64,000 nt of DNA from Thermoplasmata archaeon (GTDB lineage: Archaea; Thermoplasmatota; JASEFT01; JBBABA01): NCBI GenBank assembly GCA_041657955.1, contig JBBABA010000001.1, forward strand, positions 106,419-170,418, written 5' to 3'. Under the pieces are notes generated by a model. That model saw only the letters and a list, made by a program, of their open reading frames with translations. It was not told where the DNA came from and did not search any database. The number at the start of each line of letters is the position of its first letter. The stretch's first letter is position 1. This document shows positions 6,151-50,267 of the stretch, in pieces. A program made the position numbers and the translations under genes.

Positions 6151-6158
6151 CATGTAGA

Positions 6159-8226: not shown

Positions 8227-8229
8227 TAT

Positions 8230-20990: not shown

Positions 20991-20995
20991 AAGAA

Positions 20996-21966: not shown

Positions 21967-21967
21967 T

Positions 21968-22729
21968 ATGCTGCGAACAAGGGTTATACCGTTTTTGTTA
22001 TTAAGGAACAGTGGTCTTTACAAAGGGATAAATTTCAAAGATCATAAATATGTCGGCGATCCAATCAACACGGTGAAGATATTTAACGAGAAAGAGGTCG
22101 ACGAACTTGCATTGCTTGATATTACGACTTCATTGGAAAACAAAGAACCAAATTACTCCCTCATAAAAGATATTGTGAGTGAGGCGTTTATGCCTATCTC
22201 TTATGGTGGAGGGGTAAAAACCCTTGAACAAGCACGAAAACTTTTTAATCTCGGTATAGAAAAGATTATAGTCAATACGTCCTTTGCACACAATCCAGGT
22301 ATTATAACTGAGATCGCCTCTGTTTTTGGCTCTCAAAGTGTTGTTGTTTGCATAGATGTAAAAAAATCGTTATCGGGGAATTATGCATCATACATTATGT
22401 CTGGAACGCAAAAAACTAAGGAATCCCCTGTTGAATTAGTCAAAAAAGCACAGGAGATTGGTGCGGGAGAAATTGTTATCAACTCGATTGATCGCGACGG
22501 CACACTGTCAGGTTACGACCTAAAGATTATTAATGAGATAACGCAATCAGTTTCTGTACCGGTTATTGTAGTAGGTGGGGCATCAAATCTTGAAGATTTT
22601 AAAAAAGCGGTCGAGTCGGGTGCGAGTGCGGTTGGAGCGGGCGCCATGTTTGTTTTCAACGGACCCCATAGGGCAGTTCTTATAACTTATCCAAGCTATG
22701 ATGTACTTAAGAATATATTGGGAGAATAA
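21968..22729 (+). CDS. HisF-like cyclase subunit (WbuZ/AglZ-like)
   Basis: RVIPFLLL, GGGV and IVNT motifs of the HisA/HisF TIM barrel. Start refined to the ATG just after the hisH-like stop. Confidence 0.8.
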   Translation: MLRTRVIPFLLLRNSGLYKGINFKDHKYVGDPINTVKIFNEKEVDELALLDITTSLENKEPNYSLIKDIVSEAFMPISYGGGVKTLEQARKLFNLGIEKIIVNTSFAHNPGIITEIASVFGSQSVVVCIDVKKSLSGNYASYIMSGTQKTKESPVELVKKAQEIGAGEIVINSIDRDGTLSGYDLKIINEITQSVSVPVIVVGGASNLEDFKKAVESGASAVGAGAMFVFNGPHRAVLITYPSYDVLKNILGE

Positions 22730-30322: not shown

Positions 30323-31290
30323 TTACACACCCATGAACCGTCGGTTTTCTAATATCCACTCATATTCCTTCTTTAATCCATCTGCAAGATTGGTACTGGT
30401 CTTATAATTTAAGATATCTTGGGCATTTGAAACGTCTGCGATAGTATGTTCAACATCACCTTTTTGCTTTTCAATATACCGTACTTTGGCTTTTTTTCCT
30501 ACGGTATCCTCCATAATTCGAATCACCTCTTTCAAGGTAATTCTCGACCCTCCGCCGATATTAAACACACCCCAATCTACCTTAGACTTCATGGCAAGCA
30601 TATTCGCATTTACTGCATCTGAAACATATGTGAAATCGCGTGTTTGTTTTCCGTCGCCAAAGACAACTATTTCTTCGTTTTTAATTATTGATCTTATAAA
30701 CCGATTAAACGCCATATCGGGGCGCTGTCTCGGCCCATAAACAGTAAAATACCGCAGAGCAGTAATTGGAATGTTATAGTTTTTCCAATAAAGATAACAC
30801 AGATTTTCTGCGGCAAGCTTTGAAACACCATATGGTGAAACAGGTCTAACAGGTAAATGCTCCCGCATGGGTAATTCGCAATCGCCATATACTGAAGATG
30901 ATGAAGCGTATATTAATTTCTTAATTTTTGTATTTTTACACGCCTCCAAAATCCTTTGTGTAGCCATAACATTGTCTCTAAGATAGATATCAAAGCTCTC
31001 GCCCCAACTTGCTCTAACGCCTGGCTGAGCAGCCTCATGGAAAATATAGTCCGCATCCGAAATAAGTTTTTTCAGATTCAAATCCAAGATGTTCTTATCA
31101 ATCAGTTTAAAAGCTTTATGAGACATCAGTTTTTCTATATTTTTCATCTTTAATTCTCTCGCATAGTAATCCGTGAAACAATCGATGCCTATTACCTCAT
31201 GGCTCGACTCGATTAATTTTTCTGAGATGTGCGAACCAATGAAACCTGCAGCACCAGTTACTATACACTTAATAGTATCGCCCCCGTCAT
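30323..31290 (-). pseudogene. NAD-dependent epimerase/dehydratase with apparent frameshift at a G5 (plus-strand C5, 31281-31285) tract near the 5' end
   Basis: Rossmann N-terminus (KCIVTGAAGFIGSHI) is encoded in frame upstream of the annotated MKNIEKL start but has no in-frame ATG/GTG/TTG. An ATG at 31290 overlaps the upstream galU stop (ATGA) in the +1 frame. One extra G in the G5 run would restore MTGGDTIKCIVTGAAGFIGS. Confidence 0.55.
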
Positions 31291-35587: not shown

Positions 35588-36799
35588 TTATACCCGTTCA
35601 ACTTCGATTTTTATTTTTTTAATGACTTTTTCTGCAATTTTTATTGCCTGCTCGCGTGTTTTACCAATAGCAACCACATATCCATGTCTGTCTGTATGAT
35701 TTTCGATTCTAGGTACTATATTTCCTACTTTTATCACATCATCGATTGTTAATTCGTACACACCTTCGATTTTTCTCGCTTCTGATATGCCTGAAATGCT
35801 CACAATTTTACCGGGGTCCGGGAAAATAAATCTTTCTGCTACGCCCTTGGTAAATTTAGGTACTAACCAATCCAAATTAGGCTCGATATTTACAGCCATT
35901 TCGATAAGAGGATATAGTATATTAGCTCCATTAGATAACGGTACTTTTAAGGAACAAAATCTTCCACCACTGGTTCTTGCAGCCATTTCAATTACTTTGG
36001 GGCCTTCACTGTCTATTAGGATATCTCCTTTTGCCACGCCCCATGTTAATCCAAGCGCTTTAATGGCTTTCTCTACTACATGCAATACTTTGTCTAACTC
36101 CTCTTTTGACAACCTTGTTGGCAATTCACCGCCATCTTCGATGAAAAATGGGTCAAAAGACTTCTTATCGCTATAATTCCTATCTGCGATGCAAGGCGTA
36201 TAAATTTTGTCATTATATATCACAGATTCGGTACTTATCTCAAACCCCTGGAGGTACTCCTCCACTAAAATGGTTTTTTGCTTTGAAAAACTCAATGAAT
36301 ACTTGTAATATTTTTCAATATCAGCAATCGATGAAATCTTTACAACACCTCTTGCTCCAGAATTGTCAATAGGTTTAAAAACAACAGGAAATCCCAAATT
36401 TTCAGCAACTATCTTTGCTTCCTCTATAGAAGATGCGCTAAAAAATCGAGATGTAGGTACATTGTTTTTCTTAAAACACTGGATTCTTTTCAGTTTATTG
36501 GTAGCTCGTTCTGCTATTTCCGGGTCAATTCCAGGCAAATTTAATGCGCGAGCTACTTTAGCCACAACAACAGGAATCTCTACTCCATGTGTCATTACCC
36601 CATCTATTTTGTATTTTTTACCGATCTCGATTAGTTTGTCCACATCTTTAATATCCGCGTTTATTCCCACATCTGCAATTTTTAGGCCGGGTGCTTTTGG
36701 ATTTTGATCTACTACAATAACCCTCAAACCCATCTCTTTAGCAATTTGAATTGCAGTTACTTGCTCAATACCAGCGCCTAGCAACATTATAGTTTTCAT
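35588..36799 (-). CDS. ATP-grasp family ligase
   Basis: PurK/carboxylase-like ATP-grasp layout: IMLLGAG...GFPVVFKP...SGARGV...EEYLQGFEIS. Start refined to MKTIMLLGAG, abutting the upstream SDR stop. Confidence 0.7.
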   Translation of the reverse strand: MKTIMLLGAGIEQVTAIQIAKEMGLRVIVVDQNPKAPGLKIADVGINADIKDVDKLIEIGKKYKIDGVMTHGVEIPVVVAKVARALNLPGIDPEIAERATNKLKRIQCFKKNNVPTSRFFSASSIEEAKIVAENLGFPVVFKPIDNSGARGVVKISSIADIEKYYKYSLSFSKQKTILVEEYLQGFEISTESVIYNDKIYTPCIADRNYSDKKSFDPFFIEDGGELPTRLSKEELDKVLHVVEKAIKALGLTWGVAKGDILIDSEGPKVIEMAARTSGGRFCSLKVPLSNGANILYPLIEMAVNIEPNLDWLVPKFTKGVAERFIFPDPGKIVSISGISEARKIEGVYELTIDDVIKVGNIVPRIENHTDRHGYVVAIGKTREQAIKIAEKVIKKIKIEVERV

Positions 36800-36800
36800 T

Positions 36801-37550
36801 TTATCCAAAATATAAGCCACCGTTTACATTTATTGTTTGACCTGTAATATAACTAGCTTTCTCGCTTGCAAGAAATACAACAACATTGGCTATCTCTTCA
36901 GCGGTGGCAATTCTTCCTATGGGAATACTTCTAACTTTTTCTCTTCCAGCCGGAGTTGTCATCTCTGCGACAATCATGTCTGTATCCACTAATCCCGGTG
37001 AAACTGCATTTGAGGTAACCCCATTCTTACTGTAAATGCGAGCTAAAGATTTGGTTAGATTAATCAACCCCGCTTTTGCTATGGCATAATGAACTTGGTT
37101 CACTCCCCCCCACTGTCCGCCTATTGAACAAATATTGATAATTCTTCCCCACCCTTGCCCTATCATATCGGGTATTGCCTCCTGGCAAAAAATAAACGGC
37201 CCCCGGAGATTTACAGCCATCATATTGCCCCAATCTTCGTCATTAATTGTTTCGAATGGTTTCTCCTGGGTAAGTGCAGCATTATTTACTAGGATGTTTA
37301 ATTTACCAAAATTTTTATGCACTTCCTCAATAACTTTGTGTATATCGCCCCTACTTTTTTGGTCAAGTTTTATACATATTGCTCTACTGCCTTTACTTTC
37401 TATCTCTTTAACTACAGCAACGGCTTTTTCTTTGTTGGTGTTATATGTCAGTGCAACGTTTATTCCTTCCTTGGCCAAAGCTATTGCTATTGCCCTTCCA
37501 ATGCCACGGCTCCCACCGGTTACCAAAGCAGTTCTCTCTTCCATCAACAT
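36801..37550 (-). CDS. Short-chain dehydrogenase/reductase (FabG-like)
   Basis: ALVTGGSRGIGRAIA, NNAA and YAIAKAG motifs. Confidence 0.85.
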   Translation of the reverse strand: MLMEERTALVTGGSRGIGRAIAIALAKEGINVALTYNTNKEKAVAVVKEIESKGSRAICIKLDQKSRGDIHKVIEEVHKNFGKLNILVNNAALTQEKPFETINDEDWGNMMAVNLRGPFIFCQEAIPDMIGQGWGRIINICSIGGQWGGVNQVHYAIAKAGLINLTKSLARIYSKNGVTSNAVSPGLVDTDMIVAEMTTPAGREKVRSIPIGRIATAEEIANVVVFLASEKASYITGQTINVNGGLYFG

Positions 37551-37561
37551 TTTATGCTCTC

Positions 37562-39262
37562 CTAGGGATCTAAAGTAACATGCGTTCGTAAGCCCATCTC
37601 CACCTCACAGAGGATCGGGCCCTTAGTATCAAGAACGGCCCTAATTTTTTGCGCTAACCCATCTTGTGAAGCGATTTTAGATGCCTCAATCTTGTACGCA
37701 CGGGCAATTGCCAAAATATCTGGAATTGAATAGCCATACTTCGGGGATGATGCAAAATAGCGGCCCCCAAGCTTTGAATCCTGATAATCCATAATTGCAC
37801 CGTATGAATGATTGTTCAGAACAAATATCTTAACTGGCAGATTGTACGAACGAATTGTCTGCAACTCTTGAATGTTTAACTGAATAGCGCCGTCACCAAT
37901 GGTACAAATAACCCGTGGAGAACCATCTCTGTAATGGACTGCAACCCCAATCGCGGCTGGCATTGAATAGCCCATTGTAGAGTGCGCTGTATCGGTAAAA
38001 AGTCTCTGTTGAGCACGTACTTCCACTGCTTGCATAGCCCACATCACGTTCTGTCCTGCATCTGCAATCAATATATCATCATCGGCCATCTGTTCAGATA
38101 ATGTTTTCATAAATACGTAGGGATTTACCGCGTCTTTTTCTGAATAATATTCTGGTTTACAAAAAGGATTTTCCTCAAAACTATTCCTCGTTTGTTTTCG
38201 CCAAACAGAGAACTGTGGGCAGCCATCTTTTTCCAACTCACTCAAAAGAAGGGTCAAGAACTCTTTAGCATCACATGCAAGTGATAGGTCTGTTGGCACA
38301 CGTTGATTTAATTCGTCGGGATCGATGTCAACATGGACCAATTTACCATTCGGTACAAAGTCCTTTGGTTTCATTTTTACCTGACGTAAGGTTAAACGAG
38401 TTCCAACTGCCAAAACCAAGTCACTCTTGGTAAGAGAAATATTCGTTGCGCGATTACCCATCACGCCAATCAATCCAGAATAGAGAGGACTATCATGAGC
38501 AAACGTGTCCACTCCACCAAAGGTTACAGCGACTGGTATATCACCTAGTGTTGCCAAAGCCTTGATTTCATCCGTTGCTCTCGCATTACGAACTCCGCCT
38601 CCGCTGATGATCATCGGACGCTTAGATTTTCGAATCCAGTCAGCAACGACTGTTACTTTCTCTCGAATGCTGTTGTTGTCCTCTGGACGGGTTTCGTCTG
38701 GTTCATAAGCTCTTAGTTCCCTTGCCACTATTTCTGCCCACTGTATGTCCATTGGCAAATCAATCAACACAGGCCCCGGCCGACCTGATTGCGCTATCCA
38801 AAGTGCTTTCTCTAATTCATAGCGAATATCATGCGGATTTGTAATCATAACAGCATACTTTGTTAAAGGTTTTACAACACTCACGATGTCTGTTTCCTGA
38901 AAGCCAACCTGACGTTGTTTGCTTTCACCCTTGTAATCGTGTGTTTGAACTTGCCCTGTAAAATATATGGCAGGAATGGAATCATAATAGGAGCAGGCAA
39001 TTCCTGTCACTAGATTGGTAGCACCTGGACCACTGGTAACAGCCATAGCGCCAATCTTATGAGTTGCTCGTGCGTACCCATCCAGTGCTATTGCCCCAGC
39101 TTGTTCATGCATTACACAGATGGGCGTTAACTTGCCGGTACGAAGGTTGAGATTATATACAGAATCTACCAGATGGGATATTGCCCCTCCGGTGAAGATA
39201 AACACATATTCCACGCCGTGTTTTACCAAAAATTCCGCAACATAGTCTGTTAATTTCATCAC
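37562..39262 (-). CDS. Thiamine-diphosphate-dependent enzyme, acetolactate synthase large-subunit-like
   Basis: N-terminal GVEYVFIFTGGAISHLVD...HEQAGAIALDGYARAT. C-terminal ThDP motif GDGAIQLNIQEL...N...YG. Confidence 0.85.
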   Translation of the reverse strand: MMKLTDYVAEFLVKHGVEYVFIFTGGAISHLVDSVYNLNLRTGKLTPICVMHEQAGAIALDGYARATHKIGAMAVTSGPGATNLVTGIACSYYDSIPAIYFTGQVQTHDYKGESKQRQVGFQETDIVSVVKPLTKYAVMITNPHDIRYELEKALWIAQSGRPGPVLIDLPMDIQWAEIVARELRAYEPDETRPEDNNSIREKVTVVADWIRKSKRPMIISGGGVRNARATDEIKALATLGDIPVAVTFGGVDTFAHDSPLYSGLIGVMGNRATNISLTKSDLVLAVGTRLTLRQVKMKPKDFVPNGKLVHVDIDPDELNQRVPTDLSLACDAKEFLTLLLSELEKDGCPQFSVWRKQTRNSFEENPFCKPEYYSEKDAVNPYVFMKTLSEQMADDDILIADAGQNVMWAMQAVEVRAQQRLFTDTAHSTMGYSMPAAIGVAVHYRDGSPRVICTIGDGAIQLNIQELQTIRSYNLPVKIFVLNNHSYGAIMDYQDSKLGGRYFASSPKYGYSIPDILAIARAYKIEASKIASQDGLAQKIRAVLDTKGPILCEVEMGLRTHVTLDP

Positions 39263-40146
39263 TACCTCTCTTTCTTATGTTTCAACCTTCTTGTGTTATT
39301 ATACCACTCTTCTATTTTACGTAAATTTTCTTTTTCGATAGGATATATGTTCTCTTTTTGAGGGAACTTCCTTTTTCTGACTTCATCGGCATATCTTCCA
39401 ACAGCATCTGTAATATTTTCTCCAATGTCAGCATATCTTTTAATAAATTTTGGAACAAACCACTCAAACATTCCTAGAATGTCATGAATTATAACAAGTG
39501 TACCATCTACTTGATCTCCTGCTCCAATTCCATATACGGGAACAGATAAAGCTTTAGCTATTAACCCAGCAGATTCGGCAGGCATTGCTTCAAGTAACAA
39601 GAATGAAATTCCCGCTTCCTGCAGAGCTAAAGCATCTTCTAGAATCATTTTGAAACTATCCAGTGTTTTCCCCTGCACTCTATAGCCGCCAAAAGAAGCT
39701 GTACTTTGTGGGGTCAACCCTAAATGGCCCATCACAATAATACCCGAATCCACCATTGCTTTAACTCTTGGGGCCATTCCTTTTCCACCTTCAATTTTCA
39801 CAGCGTCACACCCCACTTTTATGAATTTTCCGGCATTGACCACAGCATCCCTATCTGAAGGCTGGTAAGACATATAGGGCATATCTCCGATAACAAAAGA
39901 GAATTCAACTGCTCTACATACGGCTGAGGCCATTGTTATCATTTCATCCATGGTAACCGGATTTGTTGTTTTATAACCGAGAGTTGTCATTCCGCCCGAA
40001 TCTCCCACGAGAATCATGTCAACCCCAGCTCTATCGGCGTACAAGGCAAATGGGTAATCATACGAAGTTATGAATACCGCTTTTTCCCCTTCTTTTTTCA
40101 TTTTTTGCAGATCCAAAAGAGTTTTTTTTCTTCCTTCTTTTTTCAT
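39262..40146 (-). CDS. panB: 3-methyl-2-oxobutanoate hydroxymethyltransferase (ketopantoate hydroxymethyltransferase)
   Basis: Strong match to PanB across its length: ITSYDY, ADRAGVDMILVGDSGGM, TTNPVTMDEM, DMPYMSY, KIEGG, HLGLTPQS, GIGAG. Confidence 0.85.
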   Translation of the reverse strand: MKKEGRKKTLLDLQKMKKEGEKAVFITSYDYPFALYADRAGVDMILVGDSGGMTTLGYKTTNPVTMDEMITMASAVCRAVEFSFVIGDMPYMSYQPSDRDAVVNAGKFIKVGCDAVKIEGGKGMAPRVKAMVDSGIIVMGHLGLTPQSTASFGGYRVQGKTLDSFKMILEDALALQEAGISFLLLEAMPAESAGLIAKALSVPVYGIGAGDQVDGTLVIIHDILGMFEWFVPKFIKRYADIGENITDAVGRYADEVRKRKFPQKENIYPIEKENLRKIEEWYNNTRRLKHKKER

Positions 40147-40362
40147 GTTTCTTCCCCCCCATGTCCTTCTCATCTGTCACTATCTTTTGTTTGTAACAAT
40201 TTCACACTCAATACTTCCGCTACCTCGATATTCATGCTGCTTCTCACCAAACTTGCAAGGATATTTGTCCAGTTCTATATTAACTTAATTATATTGCCCC
40301 TTATTTCCTGAATGACATAATATACTTTTTCATTGAAATTAACCTCATCTGGTTTTATAATT

Positions 40363-40530
40363 TGTTTACTGTGCGCTTTTGTCACATACTGGGCAGACAT
40401 AATCTATCCCCACCTTTACCAATGCGTCTAACAACGGGGTGACTGTTCCCCCAGGGAAGAGAAATACTCTCTTCACACCAATTGATTTTAAAGTTTTAGC
40501 AATATTTTCAGCACCTAACATTTTCATCAT
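40363..40530 (-). pseudogene. N-terminal fragment (54 codons) of a second ThDP-dependent enzyme gene
   Basis: MMKMLGAENIAKTLKSIGVKRVFLFPGGTVTPLLDAL matches the ThDP-enzyme N-terminal module (G.E.L...GV..VFG.PGG..L...DAL), then stops. Below the 60-aa ORF cutoff. Confidence 0.5.
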
Positions 40531-41701
40531 CCACGAATATTCCTGTATCGAAACTTATTATCTTATCATATATTTTTATCTGAGTGATGTGTGGAAAATT
40601 AACCTTAAGATAATCTGAAATCTCTTCCTGACTATCATACGATGAAATAAACACAGGTATATTTTTATTTTTTAGAATCTCTGGACTCTGTACTTCATAT
40701 CCCTCGAACAACATTCCGTGTTTTTTTGGATTGAAGTCGACAATACAATCAATTTTAACATTATTGAGTAATCCAGATTGAAGAAGTTGAGTTGTATGCA
40801 TACCTGCACCATATATAATTATTTTCTTTATGTTGGGATTTATTTTGGATTTAAGATGTTGTATAAACTTCGTTCTTCGATGCTTATACTCCTTCATTAT
40901 ATTTTTATTTATTTCATACTCATTTTTTAAAGTACACTTTTCGACTTTTTCATTTTTCAGTAATATTCTTATAATCGGTATCTCTTGTAATTTCTCAACT
41001 GCTACAACATGTAAACCCAAAATGCTGGCAATATTTCTGAGGGACCCCTCGGTATAATGCATGATATGTTGATTCGAAAAAAAATCAGCGATATTGTTAA
41101 CGAAAGGTCTACTTGTATCTGGAACTTCTATATAAATATATTTATTTGGATTTGTAATTTTAATAGTTGATTTTAAAAAATCAAGTGGATTTTGAATATG
41201 CTCCAGAACGTGTATTATTGTAATTATATCAAATTTTTCGCTAAATGAATTTAAAAAATTTTCATTAAAAAACCCTTTGATTATTCTAATTCCATATTTG
41301 TTCATAGCTTCTTGAACTCCTTCTTCTGAAGGTTCAATACCAAAAACAACGTACCCTCTGCTCCTTGCAATATTTAGGAATCTCCCATCAAAAGCTCCGA
41401 TATCAAATATCGATTTGCAATTTTTTGGGGTATTGTTGTATATGAACTCTAGTTGTGACCTTCTGAAAAAGTCGGATCTCTCACCATACCTCATATCTGA
41501 TTTATAAAAATGTTCTAAGGTTTTATCTGTTGGTCGAGGATTGGTAAAAATCATCCCACAAGTCGTACAGATTGCCTGTTGTGCTGTCCAAATAAATAAT
41601 TTATTTTTACCCCATACTCTATACTCTTTTTTATAAACCACTTCGTAATCCTTGGAACTACATATAGGACAATTTATCTCTCTCGTTTCTATTTCCTCCA
41701 T
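40508..41701 (-). CDS. SAM-dependent methyltransferase with N-terminal zinc ribbon (sugar C-/O-methyltransferase-like architecture)
   Basis: CPICSS...CTTCG zinc ribbon, then class-I MTase motif FDIGAFDGRF, and a C-terminal extension as in NDP-hexose C-methyltransferases. Confidence 0.7.
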   Translation of the reverse strand: MEEIETREINCPICSSKDYEVVYKKEYRVWGKNKLFIWTAQQAICTTCGMIFTNPRPTDKTLEHFYKSDMRYGERSDFFRRSQLEFIYNNTPKNCKSIFDIGAFDGRFLNIARSRGYVVFGIEPSEEGVQEAMNKYGIRIIKGFFNENFLNSFSEKFDIITIIHVLEHIQNPLDFLKSTIKITNPNKYIYIEVPDTSRPFVNNIADFFSNQHIMHYTEGSLRNIASILGLHVVAVEKLQEIPIIRILLKNEKVEKCTLKNEYEINKNIMKEYKHRRTKFIQHLKSKINPNIKKIIIYGAGMHTTQLLQSGLLNNVKIDCIVDFNPKKHGMLFEGYEVQSPEILKNKNIPVFISSYDSQEEISDYLKVNFPHITQIKIYDKIISFDTGIFVDDENVRC

Positions 41702-41703
41702 TT

Positions 41704-42705
41704 TTACCTACCACCTACAACTATCTGACTCACTCGTTTTGCACCTTTTCCATCAATCAATTCCACTCCATTAGATGAAATTTTCTTTATAAAATCGTTG
41801 CGGTTGGCTATCCCTTCAAACCTTCTTTTAAATGTAGTAAAATCAAGATTTTTATAGTATCCTAATGATACCAGCAGTCCTTTTTGTTCCAACTCGTTAG
41901 CGTATTTAATGTCGTCGTCAATATAACGATTTATTACGACTGGTGGAATACCTAGATACAAAAATTCGAAAACACTCACACCAAAGCCACAGATTACAAA
42001 TTTCCAAGGACCGAGGGTATCGACAATTTTCCAATTAAACTCATGTGCCTCAATGTGGTTACATTCGGAGCAGATATCTCTAATTTCAGATTTAAATTTA
42101 TAATTCTTGCCCATAAGAACTGTAAAATCGAACTTTGGTAACCGTGCCAAATAGTCGATAAAATGTCCCAACATATCGTTTGGGTCACTTCCTCCAAAAG
42201 TAACAACGACTCTGTTTGAATTTACATCGAAAAGAGGTTTCCCCCCCTTTTTGATAATGTTTGGATTCAACAACACATATTCCGGGCCATGAAGCACCGT
42301 GACATGGCGTGGGATTCTCTTAAGCTCGGGCGGCTCATACAAATACGGGAAGACGGCAATATCTGCCTTCTCTACTATCTTGGACGCGTTATCTATAATT
42401 ACCAATTTTGATCCAGTACCTTTTATTCCATCTACCAACTGTTTAGGTATTTCCTTCAAATCCAGAACAACTACATCCGGCGCTTTATCTTTTATTTCAG
42501 ATAGTACATTGTCAACAGGATGTGAGTTAATGATATTTAATCGAATCCATTTCTTTTGAAGTTCTAGCGGGGTATCTGTATAAAAGTATATAGCCGAATC
42601 TGGTTCCAAACAATGAACCTCTTCCGCTATTGACAAACAACGAGAAAAATGACCGAATCCTATCTGTTCGTTGGATAAAAAATAAAAAATGAACGTTCTA
42701 GACAA
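41704..42705 (-). CDS. pseG: PseG-like UDP-sugar hydrolase (MurG-like GT28 fold)
   Basis: N-terminal QIGFGHFSRCLSIAEE matches the PseG G.GH..R motif. About 330 aa, two-domain layout. Confidence 0.6.
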   Translation of the reverse strand: MSRTFIFYFLSNEQIGFGHFSRCLSIAEEVHCLEPDSAIYFYTDTPLELQKKWIRLNIINSHPVDNVLSEIKDKAPDVVVLDLKEIPKQLVDGIKGTGSKLVIIDNASKIVEKADIAVFPYLYEPPELKRIPRHVTVLHGPEYVLLNPNIIKKGGKPLFDVNSNRVVVTFGGSDPNDMLGHFIDYLARLPKFDFTVLMGKNYKFKSEIRDICSECNHIEAHEFNWKIVDTLGPWKFVICGFGVSVFEFLYLGIPPVVINRYIDDDIKYANELEQKGLLVSLGYYKNLDFTTFKRRFEGIANRNDFIKKISSNGVELIDGKGAKRVSQIVVGGR

Positions 42706-42761
42706 CTAGCACCCTCCTTTATGCATATCTCTTTTTCTAGACAAACGATGTCCCCAATATA

Positions 42762-43691
42762 TCAAGGTTTACCCCATAAACTAGGATTAATTATCTTCTC
42801 AGGAGCGCTCCCCAGATTATTTATTTCTTGGATTGTTTCTTTTGCAAGTTTTCCTTTTTTTAATATTCTCAGATTTTCGATTAATTGCTCCGTTTTTTCC
42901 ACACCTATCAAAACGCTATCCAACTCATTGATACTAAGATTATATCTTAATGCTAGCTCTCCTATCGTTATATTATTCTCTTCACATATTGTCAATATCC
43001 TCTGGCGATATAGCCAAAATTCTTTTAGTTTATCTGGAATGTTGTCTTTAAAAAACAATCCTTGTAAAAACACGCTTCTTGCAAGCACAGTAATTCCTTT
43101 TCTTTTTGCTTTTTTAAGAAAACCATTTTCAAGCAGCCTTTTGTCTATGAGGTTGAAAGGCACTTGTATTACTTCAACACCTTCGATATTCAACGCCTTT
43201 TCCGCTTCATCTGGTGCGTATGTTGAAACACCAATCTTTTCTATAATTCCTTCTAATTTTAATCTCTCCAACTCCCTTAGGATAAGGCCATTCTCTTTTA
43301 TGGCATCTTCAAATCTGTGAAACAGATATATGGACAATGTTTTAATCCCAAGGTTTTCTAGAGTTTTTTTGACATTTTTTTTGACGCTATCGACAATAGT
43401 TTCTTTGTTTTTGTCCCAGTTAGTGGGAGGAACCTTTGATATGAATACTAATTTCCCACTGTCAAATTCTTTAAGACACGCCCCCAATATTTTTTCGCTG
43501 TCTCCATATTCGGGCGCGGTATCAAACGTATTTATTCCATTTTCAACTGCGTTTTTGATTATGGACGCGCTCTCTCCAAAACTGGGTTTGCCAGTAATAT
43601 TATTTATACCATAATTCATTCCTAGTTGCGCGGCGCCGAGACACAATCTAGAAATTTGAACGCCTGTTTTTCCTAATTTAGAGTATTCCAT
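42762..43691 (-). CDS. Aldo/keto reductase
   Basis: MEYSKLGKTGVQISRLCLGAAQLG...FDTAPEYG, typical AKR N-terminus. Confidence 0.85.
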   Translation of the reverse strand: MEYSKLGKTGVQISRLCLGAAQLGMNYGINNITGKPSFGESASIIKNAVENGINTFDTAPEYGDSEKILGACLKEFDSGKLVFISKVPPTNWDKNKETIVDSVKKNVKKTLENLGIKTLSIYLFHRFEDAIKENGLILRELERLKLEGIIEKIGVSTYAPDEAEKALNIEGVEVIQVPFNLIDKRLLENGFLKKAKRKGITVLARSVFLQGLFFKDNIPDKLKEFWLYRQRILTICEENNITIGELALRYNLSINELDSVLIGVEKTEQLIENLRILKKGKLAKETIQEINNLGSAPEKIINPSLWGKP

Positions 43692-43713
43692 AATCCTTTG
43701 CTCACAATCATAA

Positions 43714-45027
43714 TCAGTCTTTTGTTAGGCGATAAAATCCCCTTCGCGCTATTGGTCCTTTAAGCATCTTCTCTACATAGTTCTTCTCGATAGCCTCAGC
43801 AATCCCAAAGAATACCTCTTTTGTCTCTTTTAAATATTTTTTGATGTGGACATCTTTATGTGCATAAGAAGATTTGAACTGGTTCCAAGCCAGAAAGCCT
43901 CTTTTCAACATCTCCTGGGTGAATAGTGTGGATATTGCTAAATCATTTTCATACTTGAAAGAAAAATGGCTTAACGGTGGAATCCCCTCGATACCTATTT
44001 TCAAACCAGTTTCATCAGCAATCTCTTTCCAACCCTTTTGAATTTTTTCGCCAACATCTATAAGGTGCTCTGCTACTTTTTCTTGTTTAAACTTCTTGAT
44101 TGTTGCCAATGCTGCAACGGGTCCTATCCGCTCTGACCAGTTTGTACTGCTGATAAATGTAGACTGTGCCGCTTCCATTATCTCTTCCTTGCCTATTACC
44201 GCAGCCATGGGATATCCATTCGCCATAGCCTTTGCGAAAACCGCCATATCTGGATTGACCCCTAATCGCAAATGAATTCCACCCGTGTTCATTCTAAAGC
44301 AAGAAGTGATTTCATCGAAGATCAAAACCGCACCCGTAGATGAAGCGATTTTTCTAATAGACTCTAAAAAGCCGCTCTTCGGGGTAGCTTCTCTTAAAGG
44401 CTCCATTATTATTGCCGCTAGTTCTTTCTCATTTTCGGAAACTATTCTTTCAAGCTCTTCTATTTTATTATAATGAAATGGTAGTGCAGTACCCTTTAAA
44501 CTGCGAGGTACGCCTGCAGGCTCTAATCCTGGCATAAGCTGACCATCTAAGGCATTGTTCTCTCCTAGGTTTGCAGCCAGATACCAGTCACACCAACCAT
44601 GATATCCACAAAAGGCAACCTTATCCCTCCCAGTTGCAGCCCTAGCTATCCTTATTGCCATGGATGCCGACTCACCACCAGATCGTGCGTAGCGTACCAT
44701 TTCCGCCCATGGGTGAAGTTTACACAACAGTTCAGCCAGTTCTACTTCCTCTGGGCAATTTAGCGTCGAAGCAATTCCATTATCAATAGCTTTCTTAACG
44801 GCATTGTCTACATCTCGGTCCGCATACCCGAGAATACACGCACCTATACCCATTATGCTCATGTCTATGTACTCGTTTCCATCTAAGTCTACAACATTTA
44901 CTCCCTTTGCTTTTTTATAGTATGCTGGCCATAATTCCGGTAAAAACATTTCAGAACGCTTTGAAAGCAGTTGAGTGCCACCGGGAATAAGCCTGCGCGC
45001 CTTCCTATAAAGTTTCTGACCCTTCAT
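43714..45027 (-). CDS. Class-III (glutamate-1-semialdehyde aminomutase-like) PLP aminotransferase
   Basis: IPGGTQLLSKR, DLDGNEYID and FDEITSCFRMN motifs. Start overlaps the upstream stop (ATGA); GGAGGAG RBS. Confidence 0.85.
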   Translation of the reverse strand: MKGQKLYRKARRLIPGGTQLLSKRSEMFLPELWPAYYKKAKGVNVVDLDGNEYIDMSIMGIGACILGYADRDVDNAVKKAIDNGIASTLNCPEEVELAELLCKLHPWAEMVRYARSGGESASMAIRIARAATGRDKVAFCGYHGWCDWYLAANLGENNALDGQLMPGLEPAGVPRSLKGTALPFHYNKIEELERIVSENEKELAAIIMEPLREATPKSGFLESIRKIASSTGAVLIFDEITSCFRMNTGGIHLRLGVNPDMAVFAKAMANGYPMAAVIGKEEIMEAAQSTFISSTNWSERIGPVAALATIKKFKQEKVAEHLIDVGEKIQKGWKEIADETGLKIGIEGIPPLSHFSFKYENDLAISTLFTQEMLKRGFLAWNQFKSSYAHKDVHIKKYLKETKEVFFGIAEAIEKNYVEKMLKGPIARRGFYRLTKD

Positions 45028-45809
45028 GACTTCTCCTCCCAAAATTTCTCATAGCCCTCTTCACCTATAAAATGAACGTTCTTCTTCAGTAATTTTGGAT
45101 TTTTTTTGAAGAAATTAAGCACATCTTTCATATCGAAATCTGGTTTTTTGGGATACAATTCAGCGTATATCGTACTTACAACCTCAAAATCTTCCTGGTT
45201 ATCTACTGTCCATCTCATTTTCGAATAGTCAACATCGCTCTTGTAAGAACTAACTTTGAATCTTTCAGGCCTCTTCCAGATAAACGGGGTCACGTGTTCT
45301 CTTTCCAGTTGTTCTTTTGCCTCTCTCCATGCGGTTTCAAGCACGGAAAAGCTGAAGACCTCTGCGTCAAGGCCATCCGGATAGCGGCAACCGTCAAATT
45401 TTTTATCAGCGACTCCTGCGCCCGTGGCAACACCGATAAAGTCATAATTTTTCGATCTTAAAAATAAGGTCAGAACCTTGTCTATTAATGTGGGATCGAC
45501 CAGAGGGCAGTCTGCTGTAATTCTAATCACAACATCCGCCTTATGCTCTTTTGCCGCTTTGTAGAACCTATCCAAAACATCGTTCTCGCTACCAGAAAAG
45601 CAACTAATCTTGTTTTCTTCGCATATTTTTCGTATAGAATCATTAATCCTCTCTTCAGAGGTGGCCACAACCACTTCGTTAATTTTCTTTACTTTCCTCA
45701 ATCTTTCTACTATATGCACCAGCATGGGCTTGCCGAGAATGGGTTTTAAAACCTTGCCTGGCAGACGGGTGGAGCTCATTCTTGCCTGTATGATTGCAAC
45801 AACCTTCAT
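45024..45809 (-). CDS. pseF: Cytidylyltransferase, acylneuraminate/pseudaminate cytidylyltransferase family (PseF/SpsF-like)
   Basis: MKVVAIIQARMSSTRLPGKVL signature of the CTP_transf_3 family. Confidence 0.75.
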   Translation of the reverse strand: MKVVAIIQARMSSTRLPGKVLKPILGKPMLVHIVERLRKVKKINEVVVATSEERINDSIRKICEENKISCFSGSENDVLDRFYKAAKEHKADVVIRITADCPLVDPTLIDKVLTLFLRSKNYDFIGVATGAGVADKKFDGCRYPDGLDAEVFSFSVLETAWREAKEQLEREHVTPFIWKRPERFKVSSYKSDVDYSKMRWTVDNQEDFEVVSTIYAELYPKKPDFDMKDVLNFFKKNPKLLKKNVHFIGEEGYEKFWEEKS

Positions 45810-46825
45810 TTCGAGACCTTCTTGTATGTAATGAACTCTCCTTTTTTAATTTCAGACGTCGTCTTTTTTCCGATCAGATTATAAACCTCTTTCGGTGGCA
45901 ACGAACCTTCCGGCGATGGCCTTACAACCATCAACATATCCTTGGTTATGGTTGTTCCTTTTGGGATTTCGCATTTGGCATATATCGCCCTTCTCCATGC
46001 TCTTTCGGTAAGTTCATGCTCAGATGGTCGAACTTCCTTAGCCCTCTTCATTTTTTCTACATCCCTTATCCCTGTTATCATTTGTTTTAACTCGTTTGGA
46101 TTTAGCGCGTAGGAATGATCAGGTCCAGGAAGCGATTTGTCTATGGTAAAATGTTTCTCTATTACGTTTGCGCCCATTGCAACCGCGGCTATCGACGCAT
46201 AAATCGTTGATGTATGATCTGAAAAACCCACTGGGACTCCAAAAACCCGTTTTAAAGCCAGCAACGAATTCAGATTAACATCATCCGTTTTAGCCGGGTA
46301 TTGGGAAACACAGTAAAGGAGAACGATTTGTTTGTTCCCTGTTGCGTACACACACTTAACAGTCTCTCTAATTTCATCCTCGTAAGCCATACCCGTCGAA
46401 ATTATGACGGGTTTATTTTTCTTTGCGATATGCTCAACAAGGGGGAGGTGTGATAGTTCATAGGATGCAATCTTATATGCAGTTACTCCTAAGGACTCTA
46501 ATAAATCAGCACTTTCTTCATCAAAAGCCGTAGAGAGGAAGATTAAACCTTTTTTATTTGCATATTCAAAAAGTTCTTTGTGCCACTCCTTACGAAGTGC
46601 CATCTTATTCAGTTTGTCAACAATCTCCTTATTCCTCACTTCATTAAACAATCTCTCGGCTATCCACGTTTGAAATTTTATGGCGTCTGCACCAGATTCA
46701 GCTGCGATATCGATTAGTTTCTTTGCTTGTTCCAATTTACCATCATGATTTGAGCCAACTTCAGCAATGACGAACGTCGGATTTCCTTCGCCGATCAGTT
46801 TATTGCCGATCCTTATATCCTTTAT
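45806..46825 (-). CDS. pseI: NeuB-family nonulosonic acid synthase (PseI/NeuB-like); conserved N-terminus lacks a canonical start codon
   Basis: GNPTFVIAEVGSNHDG...GADAIKFQT...SDHT motifs. The first in-frame ATG (46735) truncates the conserved N-terminus. The upstream 90 nt are in frame, with no ATG/GTG/TTG. Confidence 0.65.
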   Translation of the reverse strand: MKDIRIGNKLIGEGNPTFVIAEVGSNHDGKLEQAKKLIDIAAESGADAIKFQTWIAERLFNEVRNKEIVDKLNKMALRKEWHKELFEYANKKGLIFLSTAFDEESADLLESLGVTAYKIASYELSHLPLVEHIAKKNKPVIISTGMAYEDEIRETVKCVYATGNKQIVLLYCVSQYPAKTDDVNLNSLLALKRVFGVPVGFSDHTSTIYASIAAVAMGANVIEKHFTIDKSLPGPDHSYALNPNELKQMITGIRDVEKMKRAKEVRPSEHELTERAWRRAIYAKCEIPKGTTITKDMLMVVRPSPEGSLPPKEVYNLIGKKTTSEIKKGEFITYKKVSK

Positions 46826-46837
46826 ACAAACCCCTCC

Positions 46838-48052
46838 TTATCCGATTATGTTAGTTACTGCCCGTATAACACTTTCCACGTCGTTATCCGCCATCTTTGG
46901 ATAAAGTGGTAAACTCAAAGCTTGTTGATAAAATGTCATGGTATTCGGAAAGTCGCTATCAACATACCCAAAACGGCTTCGATAATATGGTTGTAGATGT
47001 ACTGGAATATAATGTACCTGTGAGCCAACCCCCCGTTCTTTTAATTCGCTCATTACTTGAGCGCGGCTCTTTCCAATATTTCTAAAATCTATCCTGATTA
47101 CATACAGGTGGTAAGATGATTTTGCACCATCTTTCTCAATGGGTACGATTACATTCTTCAGTTTTTTAAAGGCCGCATTATATCGGCTTACAATCCAACG
47201 GCGGCGCTCGACAAATAGATCTAACTTCTTCAGTTGGGTTATTCCAAGAGCACATTGAAAATCAGTCATGCGATAATTATAGCCTAGCTCCTGCATTTCA
47301 TAATACCAAGGATTAACCTCAACCTTTTTGGTTTTTGGATTGAGGGAAAAGGCCAGATCTTTGTTTATGAATCTGTTGGAATCTTTAGTAATTCCATGCG
47401 TCCTAAAGAGGAGTAGTTTTTGATAAAACTTCTCATTATTGGTCAGAACCATTCCGCCTTCACCAGTAGTTATGTGTTTAACGGGATGGAAACTAAGTAC
47501 TGTCATATCTGCAATGCTTCCTATCTTCCTCTCTTTGTATTCTGCACCCAAAGCATGGGCAGCATCTTCAATTACACATAAATTATTCTTCTTAGCAATT
47601 CTCATTATTTCGTCCAATTCACACGGATGGCCAGCAAAATCAACAGGTATTATCGCCTTCGTTTTTGTGGTTATATTTCTTTTAATTTCGGCGGTATCTA
47701 TAGTGTATGTACCTAATTCTATATCTGCAAAGACAGGTTTGCCGCCTACGTAGAGGACACTGTTTGACGATGCTACGAACGTCAGGGGTGAAGTTATTAC
47801 CTCGTCGCCTTCCGATATGCCTGCAGCAAAACAGGCAGTGTGCAGCGCAGCAGTGCCGCTAGAAACCGCTACAGCGTATTTTGCACCAACATAGTTCGCT
47901 ACCAAACCCTCGAACTCACTTACTTTCGGGCCCTGGGTTATAAAATCACTTTTTAAGGTCCGTAACACCTCATTAATATCATCATCACTAATCCATTGTT
48001 GCCCGTAGGGTAGTGTTTTTTTAACAGTCGTATGGTTTGTCGATTTTTTCAT
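46838..48052 (-). CDS. pseC: DegT/DnrJ/EryC1/StrS-family PLP aminotransferase (PseC-like)
   Basis: FITQGPKV, AVSSGTAALH and PVDFAGHPCELDEI (active-site Lys region). The TAA stop is immediately followed by GGAGGGG. Confidence 0.8.
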   Translation of the reverse strand: MKKSTNHTTVKKTLPYGQQWISDDDINEVLRTLKSDFITQGPKVSEFEGLVANYVGAKYAVAVSSGTAALHTACFAAGISEGDEVITSPLTFVASSNSVLYVGGKPVFADIELGTYTIDTAEIKRNITTKTKAIIPVDFAGHPCELDEIMRIAKKNNLCVIEDAAHALGAEYKERKIGSIADMTVLSFHPVKHITTGEGGMVLTNNEKFYQKLLLFRTHGITKDSNRFINKDLAFSLNPKTKKVEVNPWYYEMQELGYNYRMTDFQCALGITQLKKLDLFVERRRWIVSRYNAAFKKLKNVIVPIEKDGAKSSYHLYVIRIDFRNIGKSRAQVMSELKERGVGSQVHYIPVHLQPYYRSRFGYVDSDFPNTMTFYQQALSLPLYPKMADNDVESVIRAVTNIIG

Positions 48053-48074
48053 AAGTATCACCAATTTCACAATT

Positions 48075-49022
48075 CTATGTCAAGTTGGGATTGTTCCTTA
48101 TCCATGTTTCTGTTAGTTTAGTACCTTCCTCTAAAGACGTTTTCGGCACCCAGCTCAACAGCTCTTTTGCTTTGGAGCAGTTGCATAATAATTTTTGAAT
48201 CTCGCTTTGGGGGTGTATGTGTTTGACGTGCTTAATCCTCGATTTATCATTTACTATCAACATCGCCAGATCGTTAATAGAAATATCCTTTCCCATACCC
48301 GCGTTTATTATTTCGCCATTTACTTTATCACTATAACCAGCACCTACCACAAACCTTGCACAGTCCTCAACATACATCAAATCTCTTGTTTGTGTTCCGT
48401 CGCCATATATATTCAATGTTTGATTGTTTAAATTTCTTTTAATAAATATTGCTACCACACCGCCTTCTCCAGTAGTTTTTTGAAACGGCCCATATACATT
48501 AAACGGCCTTAGGACAACTACTGGCAACTTATATGCAAACCAGTACGATCGCACCACATTCTCTCCCGCAATCTTTGAACCTGCATATGGCGATGCGGGT
48601 TTTGTTGGGTGATTTTCATCTATCCCAGACTCATCCTTTGACCGATCATAAACCATACATGTGCTCATGAATACCATTTTTGTATCATACGTTCTGCAAT
48701 GTTCCAATACATTAAAAGTGCCTATAACGTCATTGTTAAATGTTGTTTGTGGATCGTCAATGCTATCTTGTACGTTTATCTTGGCGGCTAGATGATAACA
48801 GATGTCCAATTCGTTTTTGAATAGCTTTTTTATCGTTTTTTTATCATTTATGTTTCCTTTTGTTAAACCTTTAAAATTTGGTATTTTGTCAAAATCGGAA
48901 ACATTGCTAATCCTACCATTCGACAGGTCGTCCAATGCCCATACGTAATGCCCCTCATCTAATAGGTATTTAACTACCCATCTCCCTATAAACCCAGCAC
49001 TACCGGTTACCAGTATATTCAT
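48075..49022 (-). CDS. NAD-dependent epimerase/dehydratase
   Basis: ILVTGSAGFIGRW and YAGSK motifs. Confidence 0.85.
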   Translation of the reverse strand: MNILVTGSAGFIGRWVVKYLLDEGHYVWALDDLSNGRISNVSDFDKIPNFKGLTKGNINDKKTIKKLFKNELDICYHLAAKINVQDSIDDPQTTFNNDVIGTFNVLEHCRTYDTKMVFMSTCMVYDRSKDESGIDENHPTKPASPYAGSKIAGENVVRSYWFAYKLPVVVLRPFNVYGPFQKTTGEGGVVAIFIKRNLNNQTLNIYGDGTQTRDLMYVEDCARFVVGAGYSDKVNGEIINAGMGKDISINDLAMLIVNDKSRIKHVKHIHPQSEIQKLLCNCSKAKELLSWVPKTSLEEGTKLTETWIRNNPNLT

Positions 49023-50011
49023 TCTAAATCACTCAATATCTTCAAAATTTCATTTTTAGACAAAAGCTTCATATCGCACGAGTTTTTGATACTTTTTACT
49101 TTCTTCAAACCATTTAGACTTTCCAAGTCGGGGTCTGTTATTTGAGGAGATACGACATAGATATCCTCTCCTTCGTATGCTCTTGACATCTCTTCTTCAG
49201 TCATAATCTCTTCATACATTTTTTCGCCCGCTCTTCGTCCAATGATTTCCTTTGAGGCTTTGCCATATTTCTCAATCATCGCCTCGGCTAAATCGTTTAT
49301 GTTTAGCGGTGGCATTTTAAAAATGAATATCTCTCCCCCCCTAGCCATGATGCCAGATAATAGAACCAATTCGATCGCTTTATCTTTCGATATGATGAAC
49401 CTTGTCATTTCTGGATCTGTTATCGTTATTTTTTTGTTCTCTAATATCTGCTTTTTAAATAGTGGAATAACAGAGCCCGTAGAGCCAGCTACATTTCCAA
49501 ATCTGCAACACGCAAAAATAGTTGTGCGTCCACCATATTCATTGCCCGCAATCATCAGTTTTTCTGCGAGCAATTTTGTCGTTCCCATAGTGTTCGATGG
49601 GTTTGCCGCCTTGTCCGAACTTGTATATACCACTTTTTTTACTTTTTTCTCTATTGCTGCCTGGATAACATTCGCAGTGCCAGTTATATTTGTTTCGATA
49701 GCGTCTAATGGGTTATATTCACACTCTTCGACATGCTTATATGATGCCGTGTGAAAGACAATGTCTATGCCATTTAACGCGTATTGCAATCTAGTTAAAT
49801 TTCGAACGTCTCCTAATAAAAATCTTAAACACCCTGTTTCGTCACGATATTTCTGGCGTAAATCGAAAAGCCCGTTTTCATGTACGTCGAAAATTCTAAT
49901 AACTTTTGGTTCAAATTTTATTAGTTTTTCTATTAGTAATCTGCCGATATACCCTGCTCCACCAGTGATTAAAATTTTCTTATCCTTGTAAAAACTTTTC
50001 ATAGACACCAT
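49019..50011 (-). CDS. pseB: UDP-GlcNAc 4,6-dehydratase, CapD/PseB/FlaA1-type
   Basis: ILITGGAGYIGR...DVRN...TSSDKAANPSNTMGTTK, typical of the polysacc_synt_2 family. Start set at the MVSMKSF ATG. Confidence 0.75.
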   Translation of the reverse strand: MVSMKSFYKDKKILITGGAGYIGRLLIEKLIKFEPKVIRIFDVHENGLFDLRQKYRDETGCLRFLLGDVRNLTRLQYALNGIDIVFHTASYKHVEECEYNPLDAIETNITGTANVIQAAIEKKVKKVVYTSSDKAANPSNTMGTTKLLAEKLMIAGNEYGGRTTIFACCRFGNVAGSTGSVIPLFKKQILENKKITITDPEMTRFIISKDKAIELVLLSGIMARGGEIFIFKMPPLNINDLAEAMIEKYGKASKEIIGRRAGEKMYEEIMTEEEMSRAYEGEDIYVVSPQITDPDLESLNGLKKVKSIKNSCDMKLLSKNEILKILSDLE

Positions 50012-50267
50012 AGATACATCTCCGATTGGATATAATAAGCGAAAACCACTCCATGTATATAAATTAAATGCTAGAAAGTACCAAAAATCCACACACTTAT
50101 TCTCTATGTATTCTTTGTACCTAAACACTTATCTGATTTTCTTTTATGTACGAACATAGCGGTCACTTATGGCATCAAATAACTCTAGCCATAACGTTTC
50201 GATTTTATAACATTCGAAAAAGTAGGTAGAGCGTTTTATAACTTCCCAGAGAATCGTCAATTTATTG

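Follow-up and report, generated by a model that had tools for sequence, protein, structure and literature searches.

A non-canonical, probably pseudaminic acid-type nonulosonic acid locus in a Thermoplasmata archaeon

Introduction

Nonulosonic acids (NulOs) shape the recognition of microbes by hosts, phages and partner cells, and their chemical diversity is usually inferred from gene clusters. Much of the gene content of uncultured bacteria and archaea that resembles pseudaminic acid (Pse) biosynthesis differs from the textbook six-enzyme pathway. Here we describe a NulO-type gene array in a 64-kb stretch of DNA, hereafter the window, from a Thermoplasmata archaeon (GenBank assembly GCA_041657955.1, contig JBBABA010000001.1, positions 106,419 to 170,418). 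The array appears to join in one archaeal operon three pieces that were studied separately in bacteria: the Pen/Pal enzyme pair, the Shewanella sfm genes and Acinetobacter EpaAB.

In the seven-enzyme pathway to cytidine monophosphate (CMP)-activated Pse of Bacillus thuringiensis, Pen and Pal jointly replace PseB and are followed by a PseC-type aminotransferase (Li et al. 2015, as cited in PMC8987622 and PMC7439481). Bacillus subtilis makes legionaminic acid (Leg) by a uridine diphosphate (UDP)-linked pathway of SpsM, SpsC, SpsD, SpsG, SpsE plus SpsF (Dubois et al., PMC7439481). In Shewanella oneidensis, the genes sfmB-E (products of 581, 255, 395 and 412 amino acids (aa)) are required, together with the NeuB-family synthase SfmA, for a flagellin glycan that consists of a 274-Da mono-N-acetyl Pse-like residue, C11H18N2O6, and a C9H16O7 group with zero to two O-methyls; the authors found no orthologues of PseH, PseG, PseI or PseF (PMC3765264). 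The cytidylyltransferase of that cluster, SO_3269, is unusually large and unstudied (bioRxiv 10.1101/2023.12.03.569772). In Acinetobacter baumannii, EpaA, a fusion of CTP_transf_3 and Aldo_ket_red domains, acts with the short-chain dehydrogenase/reductase (SDR) EpaB to convert Pse5Ac7Ac to its 8-epimer, as shown by nuclear magnetic resonance (NMR; PMC12053666). ElaB, ElaA and ElaC carry out the corresponding C8 epimerisation for Leg on CMP-Leg, and a model based on crystal structures and docking proposes C8 oxidation followed by re-reduction on the CMP-sugar (PMC13656337).

Results

Organisation of the locus

A preliminary description of this DNA had placed a Pse-type pathway with extra tailoring genes at 41704-50128. 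Eight genes lie in this block where they had been reported, all on the minus strand and nearly gapless:

49019..50128, minus strand: Pen-like UDP-N-acetylglucosamine dehydratase (Polysacc_synt_2); best PDB match 6BWC
48075..49022, minus strand: Pal-type NAD epimerase/dehydratase, a 315-aa SDR; PDB match 6BWL
46838..48070, minus strand: PseC-type aminotransferase (DegT family); TIGR03588, 500.5 bits
45806..46825, minus strand: NulO synthase with NeuB and SAF domains, SpsE/SfmA-like, probable ATA start; Pfam NeuB, E = 4e-86
45024..45809, minus strand: SpsF-type CMP-NulO cytidylyltransferase (CTase); PF02348 (CTP_transf_3), E = 4e-43; PDB 6OEW, 153 bits
43714..45042, minus strand: class-III pyridoxal phosphate enzyme (AT-III), like glutamate-1-semialdehyde (GSA) aminomutase; PF00202
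42762..43691, minus strand: aldo-keto reductase (AKR), domain counterpart of the EpaA C-terminal domain; PF00248, E = 5e-43
41704..42705, minus strand: divergent PseG-family UDP-sugar hydrolase; family profile match to PseG 3HBM, GxGHxxR motif

The zinc-ribbon methyltransferase that had been counted in the block lies outside it, at 40508-41701. A co-directional, tightly packed array with operon-like spacing throughout runs from about 50128 to 28430, and the functional unit is much larger than 41704-50128. From the homologies described below, we consider it probable that the locus at about 28430-50128 makes and transfers a decorated 5,7-diamino-3,5,7,9-tetradeoxy-NulO, most likely of Pse configuration, by a non-canonical route.

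A predicted Pen/Pal pair in place of PseB

Among proteins of known structure, the dehydratase was closest to B. thuringiensis Pen (6BWC, 283 bits), ahead of PseB (2GN4, 226 bits) and PglF (179 bits). The PseB model TIGR03589 was still its best NCBIfam match, at 303 bits under the cutoff of 407.75. Its translation probably starts at an internal Met near 50014. The adjacent gene had been read as an extra epimerase/dehydratase with a tailoring role; instead its product aligns end to end with B. thuringiensis Pal (6BWL), at 459 bits (E = 5e-137), and the second-best solved structure scores 162 bits. One supposed tailoring gene is thus explained, because the extra epimerase is a Pal paired with the Pen-like dehydratase. 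The two genes overlap by 4 nt, and the same pairing occurs in the related loci L048 and L084.

The dehydratase carries the motif SSDK...M-x3-K, with Met where the SDR Tyr is expected. In related loci, a Pal homologue accompanies two dehydratases, and both are of the Met form; the 45 PseB-like dehydratases of loci without a Pal homologue have Tyr, and two more Met-form dehydratases stem from related loci in which no Pal was detected. Judged by their sequences, the Pen-like dehydratase and Pal are a distinct, co-evolving two-enzyme replacement of PseB. Relative to the B. thuringiensis pathway, the window dehydratase has Met where PMC8987622 lists Tyr for Pen, the block has no acetyltransferase, the downstream enzymes are of SpsE/SpsF type, and AKR, AT-III and sfm-like genes are added. 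The Met/Tyr position was also considered as a determinant of retaining versus inverting chemistry and was rejected, since the inverting enzymes CapE and WbjB also have Met.

Core enzymes and the configuration of the sugar

The aminotransferase scored 500.5 bits against the PseC equivalog model, above the cutoff of 423.5, and 267 bits against the LegC family model, whose cutoff is 420. The PseG-like protein reached 90.5 bits with TIGR03590, under the cutoff of 153.55, and a single-sequence search of the PDB returned no match; with a family profile it matched Campylobacter jejuni PseG (3HBM) over the full length (E = 8e-26). MurG matches of the same profile were confined to the C-terminal domain, with E values of only 1e-7 to 5e-9. 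The protein's reading as a MurG-type transferase, which the preliminary description had named among the outcomes that would overturn its interpretation, was therefore rejected. The GxGHxxR motif is present as G16, G18, H19 and R22, and its His is conserved. The NulO pathway that had been predicted is supported, and it is of the 5,7-diamino-tetradeoxy type.

The open reading frame (ORF) listed for the synthase (45806-46735) is too short: the frame is open to 46837, and homology begins upstream of the first ATG, GTG or TTG. The likely start is an ATA codon at 46825, behind a GGAGGGG motif. The full-length protein fell under the cutoffs of both the NeuB model (349.8 bits; cutoff 399.65) and the PseI model TIGR03586 (321.9 bits; cutoff 340.25), and its matches in the PDB were B. 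subtilis SpsE (250 bits), PseI (208 bits) and NeuB (177 bits). The CTase, the sole CTP_transf_3 gene of the window, had been called PseF/SpsF-like. The SpsF half of that name holds, the protein being of SpsF/6OEW type; by its model it is not PseF (TIGR03584, 35.4 bits; cutoff 205.7).

Model by model, then, the assignment that had been proposed for each gene places PseC above its cutoff and leaves the PseB, PseG and PseI models below theirs, with the dehydratase closer to Pen than to PglF. With respect to the canonical Pse set in the window, the PseF model fails as well, and no PseH-type GNAT was found among the scanned ORFs of at least 120 aa.

Conserved N-termini that extend upstream of the first ATG, GTG or TTG were seen in two genes, the synthase and an epimerase at 30323-~31273 (minus strand), whose Rossmann GxxGxxG motif is lost if the canonical start is used. 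Both have an ATA or ATT codon a few bases past a G-rich Shine-Dalgarno-like motif (46825-46837 and 31271-31288, minus strand). Non-canonical start codons in the genome would account for this, as would sequencing errors.

The sugar might instead be of Leg type, or another non-Pse stereoisomer, made by a UDP-linked route like that of SpsM, SpsC, SpsG, SpsE and SpsF and carrying the same accessory modules. We regard this as unlikely, although much of the core recalls the B. subtilis pathway: SpsE is the nearest solved relative of the synthase, for which the NeuB model also outscores the PseI model; the CTase is of SpsF type; the hydrolase belongs to the PseG/SpsG family; and the dehydratase shares its M-x3-K form with SpsM and PglF. 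Acting together, Pen and Pal give the two 4-keto epimers, and they complement the Leg pathway of B. subtilis (PMC7439481). In the lipopolysaccharide cluster of Legionella pneumophila Sg6/Sg12, the genes named are PseG, a GSA-aminomutase-like protein, a CTase, an AKR, DegT, CapD and NeuB, a likeness by annotation names; for non-Sg1 serogroups, the paper on this cluster cites a homopolymer of 4-epi-legionaminic acid. In contrast to the sps pathway, the window has a Pal partner, an aminotransferase that passes the PseC cutoff and fails that of LegC, and added AKR, AT-III and sfm-like genes, and it has no SpsD acetyltransferase. Related cassettes contain pseB, pseC, pseG and pseI as called by PGAP, and the NMR signals of the S. 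oneidensis glycan fit beta-Pse (PMC3765264). We therefore retain Pse as the most likely configuration. Its main supports are the PseC call and the related clusters in which PGAP names pse genes; for the stereochemistry it is mainly the PseC call that counts, because the synthase, CTase and hydrolase are Sps-like and Pen with Pal can feed a Leg pathway.

A conserved module of CTase, AKR and AT-III

AT-III has thousands of close relatives. Taking one genome per GTDB species, relatives 57-70% identical to it occur in at least 591 species, and those among the matches listed include Acidobacteria, Chloroflexi, CPR/Patescibacteria (candidate phyla radiation), Omnitrophota, Nitrospirota, Desulfobacterota, Planctomycetes, Bathyarchaeia, Thaumarchaeota and methanogens. 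We searched 83 loci with the window proteins by tblastn and counted genes over the 43 loci with at least 7 kb on each side of AT-III. NeuB was present in 35 of the 43, PseC in 34 and a PseB/Pen-type dehydratase in 32. The CTase was likewise found in 32, lying within 300 bp of AT-III in 26, and AKR and the PseG-like protein were found in 19 and 18, respectively.

Several of these genes are also fused into single ORFs: CTase-ATIII in four loci, AKR-CTase in three, CTase-AKR in one and NeuB-CTase in two. The cassette order is kept in Planctomycetes, in many other lineages and in Geobacter pelophilus, where the cassette adjoins flagellin and a Maf transferase. On a plasmid of Pseudosulfitobacter pseudonitzschiae, PGAP-named pseB, pseC, pseG and pseI flank an AKR and a CTase-ATIII fusion protein of 677 aa; pseF is missing. 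Among 39 cassette AKRs, the catalytic tetrad (D57, Y62, K86, H125) is at least 90% conserved. The three genes are thus not the idiosyncratic additions they had been taken for; CTase, AKR and AT-III form a conserved module of bacteria and archaea, common to more than 590 species, often fused and usually located inside PseB-PseC-NeuB clusters.

In domain content, the module resembles Epa and Ela: a CTP_transf_3 CTase is coupled to an AKR with an intact tetrad, and an SDR lies nearby. In the window, the CTP_transf_3 and Aldo_ket_red domains are encoded 1.3 kb apart with the AT-III gene between them; CTase/AKR fusions occur in L042, L051, L071 and L075. The SDR at 36801-37550 might be the EpaB counterpart, or it may instead belong to the sfm-like module described below. 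Unlike Epa and Ela, which lack it, the module has AT-III as an extra and more strongly conserved partner, and it lies inside the biosynthetic cluster as its only cytidylyltransferase. The Epa/Ela precedent suggests why redox enzymes cluster and fuse with the CTase: C8 keto chemistry would run on the CMP-sugar. A search of a phage collection with the CTase for EpaA-like genes gave only weak KdsB-like matches, and NulO papers on Leptospira and Clostridium made no mention of AKR or class-III genes.

A predicted role of AT-III on a keto intermediate

Of greatest interest is the reaction of AT-III, an enzyme without a characterised counterpart and without precedent among known NulO modules. Among solved structures it comes nearest to GSA aminomutases, with scores of about 160 bits, and next to aminotransferases whose substrates are sugar aldehydes or ketones. 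HemL was rejected as its identity because the protein lies under both HemL cutoffs (TIGR00713, 207.7 bits, cutoff 527; PRK06209, 269.9 bits, cutoff 486) and its context is a NulO cluster, not haem synthesis. AT-III is present in clusters with a GNAT (L084, L088) as well as in those with an ATP-grasp ligase. Since it is found with either, it is not part of acyl-chain synthesis; a role in building the N-acyl chain was rejected for this reason, L084 and L088 having no acyl-building genes, and also in view of its fusion to the CTase.

We infer that AT-III acts on the same keto intermediate as the AKR, the outcome being an amine, an amino/oxo shift or a stereoinversion. More tentatively, it may act on a keto intermediate of the CMP-NulO, at C8 or C4 and made by the AKR or an SDR, to give an undescribed NulO: either an 8-amino (5,7,8-triamino) sugar or a 7/8 amino-oxo-shifted isomer formed by GSA-aminomutase-like chemistry. 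In the literature searched, we found no description of a triamino nonulosonic acid.

A few Acidobacteria/Bryobacteraceae loci (L033, L031, L041, L044) carry AT-III homologues 58-60% identical to that of the window, and no NulO gene lies closer to them than 10 kb; the homologue of L033 is surrounded by an SMP-30/esterase protein, proteins of unknown function and an amidohydrolase. The AT-III family may have a second role or a non-NulO substrate.

That CTase, AKR and AT-III make a separate CMP- or CDP (cytidine diphosphate)-activated small molecule, such as an amino-alditol or an amino acid derivative, which is added to the glycan and leaves the NulO untouched, seems very improbable to us. AKRs and GSA-aminomutase-like enzymes do typically take small-molecule aldehydes, and the Acidobacteria loci lack NulO genes. 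However, the cluster would then be left without a CMP-NulO synthetase. NeuB-CTase fusions exist, SpsF of B. subtilis acts after Leg synthesis, and EpaA, which has the same two domains, acts on Pse (PMC12053666).

Putative acylation genes in place of PseH

No GNAT or PseH-type acetyltransferase was found in the block, as had been reported, nor among the scanned ORFs of at least 120 aa across the window, a set that leaves out a few short ORFs. An alternative N-acyl group, one of the substituents that had been foreseen, is the best reading of this absence. The candidate genes for it lie downstream of the block as first delimited:

40508..41701, minus strand: zinc-ribbon S-adenosylmethionine methyltransferase, 397 aa, of SfmD size and domain class; Methyltransf_23 and C-terminal Methyltransf_14
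39262..40173, minus strand: PanB, 3-methyl-2-oxobutanoate hydroxymethyltransferase; NF001452, 326.8 bits (cutoff 272), above both NCBIfam cutoffs
37562..39262, minus strand: acetolactate-synthase-like thiamine pyrophosphate (TPP) enzyme, 566 aa, SfmB-like in size and domains; three TPP domains
36801..37550, minus strand: FabG-like SDR, 249 aa, SfmC-like, possibly EpaB-like; adh_short_C2
35588..36820, minus strand: ATP-grasp carboxylate-amine ligase, 410 aa, SfmE-like; LAL_C2 and ATP-grasp domains

The methyltransferase has a CxxC...CxxC pattern at C11, C14, C45 and C48 and matches the sugar 3-C-methyltransferases 5T6B and 4RV9 weakly. The TPP enzyme scored 425.7 bits with the acetolactate synthase model TIGR00118, under the cutoff of 538. 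Its homologues sit in NulO loci L042, L064 and L069 (Saccharibacteria, a gammaproteobacterium and Dehalococcoidia), where the whole set of TPP enzyme, SDR, methyltransferase and ATP-grasp ligase recurs. The SDR is 41-63% identical to SDRs beside ATP-grasp genes in related loci. The PanB gene overlaps that of the TPP enzyme by 1 nt inside the array, and none of 86 related loci was found to contain a PanB. Among AT-III NulO loci, 12 have the ATP-grasp gene and 11 a GNAT, and none has both (hypergeometric p ~0.03, calculated by hand).

These genes parallel the sfm genes of S. oneidensis, which occur with pseB/pseC and SO_3269: the TPP enzyme has 566 versus 581 aa, the FabG-like SDR 249 versus 255, the methyltransferase 397 versus 395 and the ATP-grasp ligase 410 versus 412. 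A NeuB-family synthase is present in both systems, and neither has a recognisable PseH or PseF. The Shewanella product has one N-acetyl fewer and a large O-methylated substituent of C9 to C11. The window differs in its archaeal host without flagellin or Maf, in the insertion of PanB, in a NeuB that retains its SAF domain, in Pen/Pal in place of PseB and in separate AKR and AT-III genes. By analogy with Shewanella, we think it most likely that the ATP-grasp ligase takes the place of PseH and couples a hydroxy acid to the amine that becomes N7; in this archaeon, the presence of PanB may point to a branched, pantoate-like acid.

An ordinary Pse5Ac7Ac is an improbable alternative, in which N7 is acetylated by an enzyme encoded elsewhere and AKR, AT-III, PanB, TPP enzyme, SDR and ATP-grasp ligase are merely neighbours. 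The window does encode an AAC(3)-like protein (16203-18281) and an LbH-type acetyltransferase (3058-3627), PanB and the acetolactate-synthase-like enzyme resemble enzymes of primary metabolism, and some AT-III homologues, such as that of L033, lie outside glycan loci. Yet distant phyla have the accessory genes in the same order, the PanB and TPP-enzyme genes overlap within the array, and the CTase is fused to AT-III or AKR in several lineages while being the sole cytidylyltransferase here able to activate the sugar. In Shewanella, the sfm genes are genetically required for the glycan (PMC3765264). These observations favour an alternative acyl group over Pse5Ac7Ac.

A candidate NulO transferase

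The far end of the array encodes a large GT-B-like protein that had been proposed as an orphan candidate transferase:

28430..30316, minus strand: GT-B protein of family PF27859 (LIC12162), 628 aa, candidate NulO transferase; PF27859 assigned on the identical protein P0121

The protein is no orphan, having 114 homologues; PF27859 is precomputed on P0121 (100% identical) and on most of the others. It had no match in the Pfam copy used, which PF27859 probably postdates, and the family profile had no match in the PDB. Its AlphaFold2 (AF2) model, with a pLDDT of 89, matches GT-B structures, and the context fits a transferase. In L084, a Methanoperedenaceae contig, a PF27859 gene directly follows Pen-Pal-PseC-AKR-CTase-ATIII-GNAT-NeuB and precedes a Wzx flippase. 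PF27859 genes also precede a Polysacc_synt-type flippase gene in L086 (directly) and L085 (after a 1.7-kb gap), and a planctomycete NulO cluster ends with a member of the family. Fold and context make the PF27859 protein a credible NulO transferase candidate.

The L084 cluster (607-11836) is a second archaeal cassette; it also encodes a TIM-barrel protein of AP_endonuc_2 type, and no PseG-like gene could be recognised in it.

Discussion

Proposed pathway and its significance

By homology, after the Pen/Pal step, PseC would aminate C4, the PseG-family hydrolase would free UDP, the SpsE/SfmA-like synthase would condense the sugar with phosphoenolpyruvate, and the SpsF-type CTase would form the CMP-sugar. 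On the model of Shewanella sfmBCDE, the ATP-grasp ligase may acylate the future N7 amine with a hydroxy acid assembled by the PanB, TPP-enzyme, SDR and methyltransferase products. The AKR, possibly with the SDR, may carry out C8 keto chemistry on the CMP-sugar, as EpaA/EpaB and ElaABC do, and AT-III could aminate the same intermediate, invert its stereochemistry or catalyse a 1,2 amino/oxo shift. The PF27859 protein would then move the sugar to a lipid-linked glycan, which Wzx would flip.

Several points weigh against this scheme, beginning with the resemblance of synthase, CTase and hydrolase to SpsE, SpsF and SpsG and with the two epimers supplied by Pen and Pal, both set out above. The likeness to EpaA lies in domain content, and about half of the AT-III loci have no AKR. 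The match to the sfm genes is likewise one of domain content and size, and the S. oneidensis sugar holds only two nitrogens. PanB could be a housekeeping gene placed here by chance, and the AAC(3)-like and LbH acetyltransferases are possible N7 acetylators. All enzyme roles are predictions from sequence.

We place the locus, as an archaeal member, in a Pse-type pathway variant that is widespread and has been characterised only in part. Features of the variant are a different CTase coupled to a reductase and AT-III, an ATP-grasp ligase for the acetyltransferase, and a GT-B family without characterised members as the likely source of the transferase. If the suggested AT-III product is real, then CPR bacteria, Acidobacteria, Chloroflexi, methanogens and Thermoplasmata bear a widespread surface sugar that has so far been overlooked. 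The cassette occurs in cultured organisms, in which the unexplained steps are approachable; carriers include G. pelophilus, Syntrophorhabdus aromaticivorans UI, Syntrophaceticus schinkii, P. pseudonitzschiae SMR1 and Halorussus aquaticus.

Neighbouring genes

One further gene of the array lies directly after the ATP-grasp gene:

33539..35584, minus strand: GH57/GH38-fold protein, 681 aa; PF03065, E = 4e-16

A single-sequence search of the PDB gave no match for this protein; its AF2 model (pLDDT 87) matches a GH57 4-alpha-glucanotransferase and GH38 mannosidases. Copies 37-50% identical occur in L001, L010, L014, L023, L025, L068 and L074. In this protein, which has more than 3000 homologues, Glu124 and Asp223 are invariant; we take them to be the catalytic nucleophile and acid-base of the GH57 motifs. 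The gene stands right behind that of the ligase in NulO cassettes from Geobacter, Acidobacteria and Thiohalobacter as well as in this archaeon, and a glycosidase-like enzyme within a cytoplasmic sugar-nucleotide pathway is unexpected.

The AAC(3)-like protein at 16203-18281 (minus strand) has 692 aa; an aminoglycoside-3-N-acetyltransferase-like domain forms its N-terminal part, and some 400 residues have no assignment. Although 17 kb away, it may be part of the NulO system, because this domain is also found joined to the GH57-like protein in the homologues P0290 and P0351, beside PseB/PseC genes.

Domain scans of the window ORFs showed that the whole window is a glycan-assembly island. It encodes a GT4-family initiating transferase, several GT-B glycosyltransferases, a Wzx-type flippase, two UDP-N-acetylglucosamine 2-epimerases, UDP-sugar dehydrogenases, deoxythymidine diphosphate (dTDP)-rhamnose-type genes and one transposase; no tRNA or Rfam RNA was found in the window. 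The DDE transposase belongs to the region 3816-4778 (minus strand) and 6159-7022 (plus strand), beside a 287-aa UDP-sugar dehydrogenase fragment that lacks the C-terminal domain and seems left over from a rearrangement. At 19857-22729 (plus strand), a WbuX N-acetyl-sugar amidotransferase gene (280 bits; cutoff 203) is followed by HisH-like and HisF-like genes. This trio is a set for converting N-acetyl to acetamidino groups, and its target could be N5 of the NulO or a different amino sugar in the glycan.

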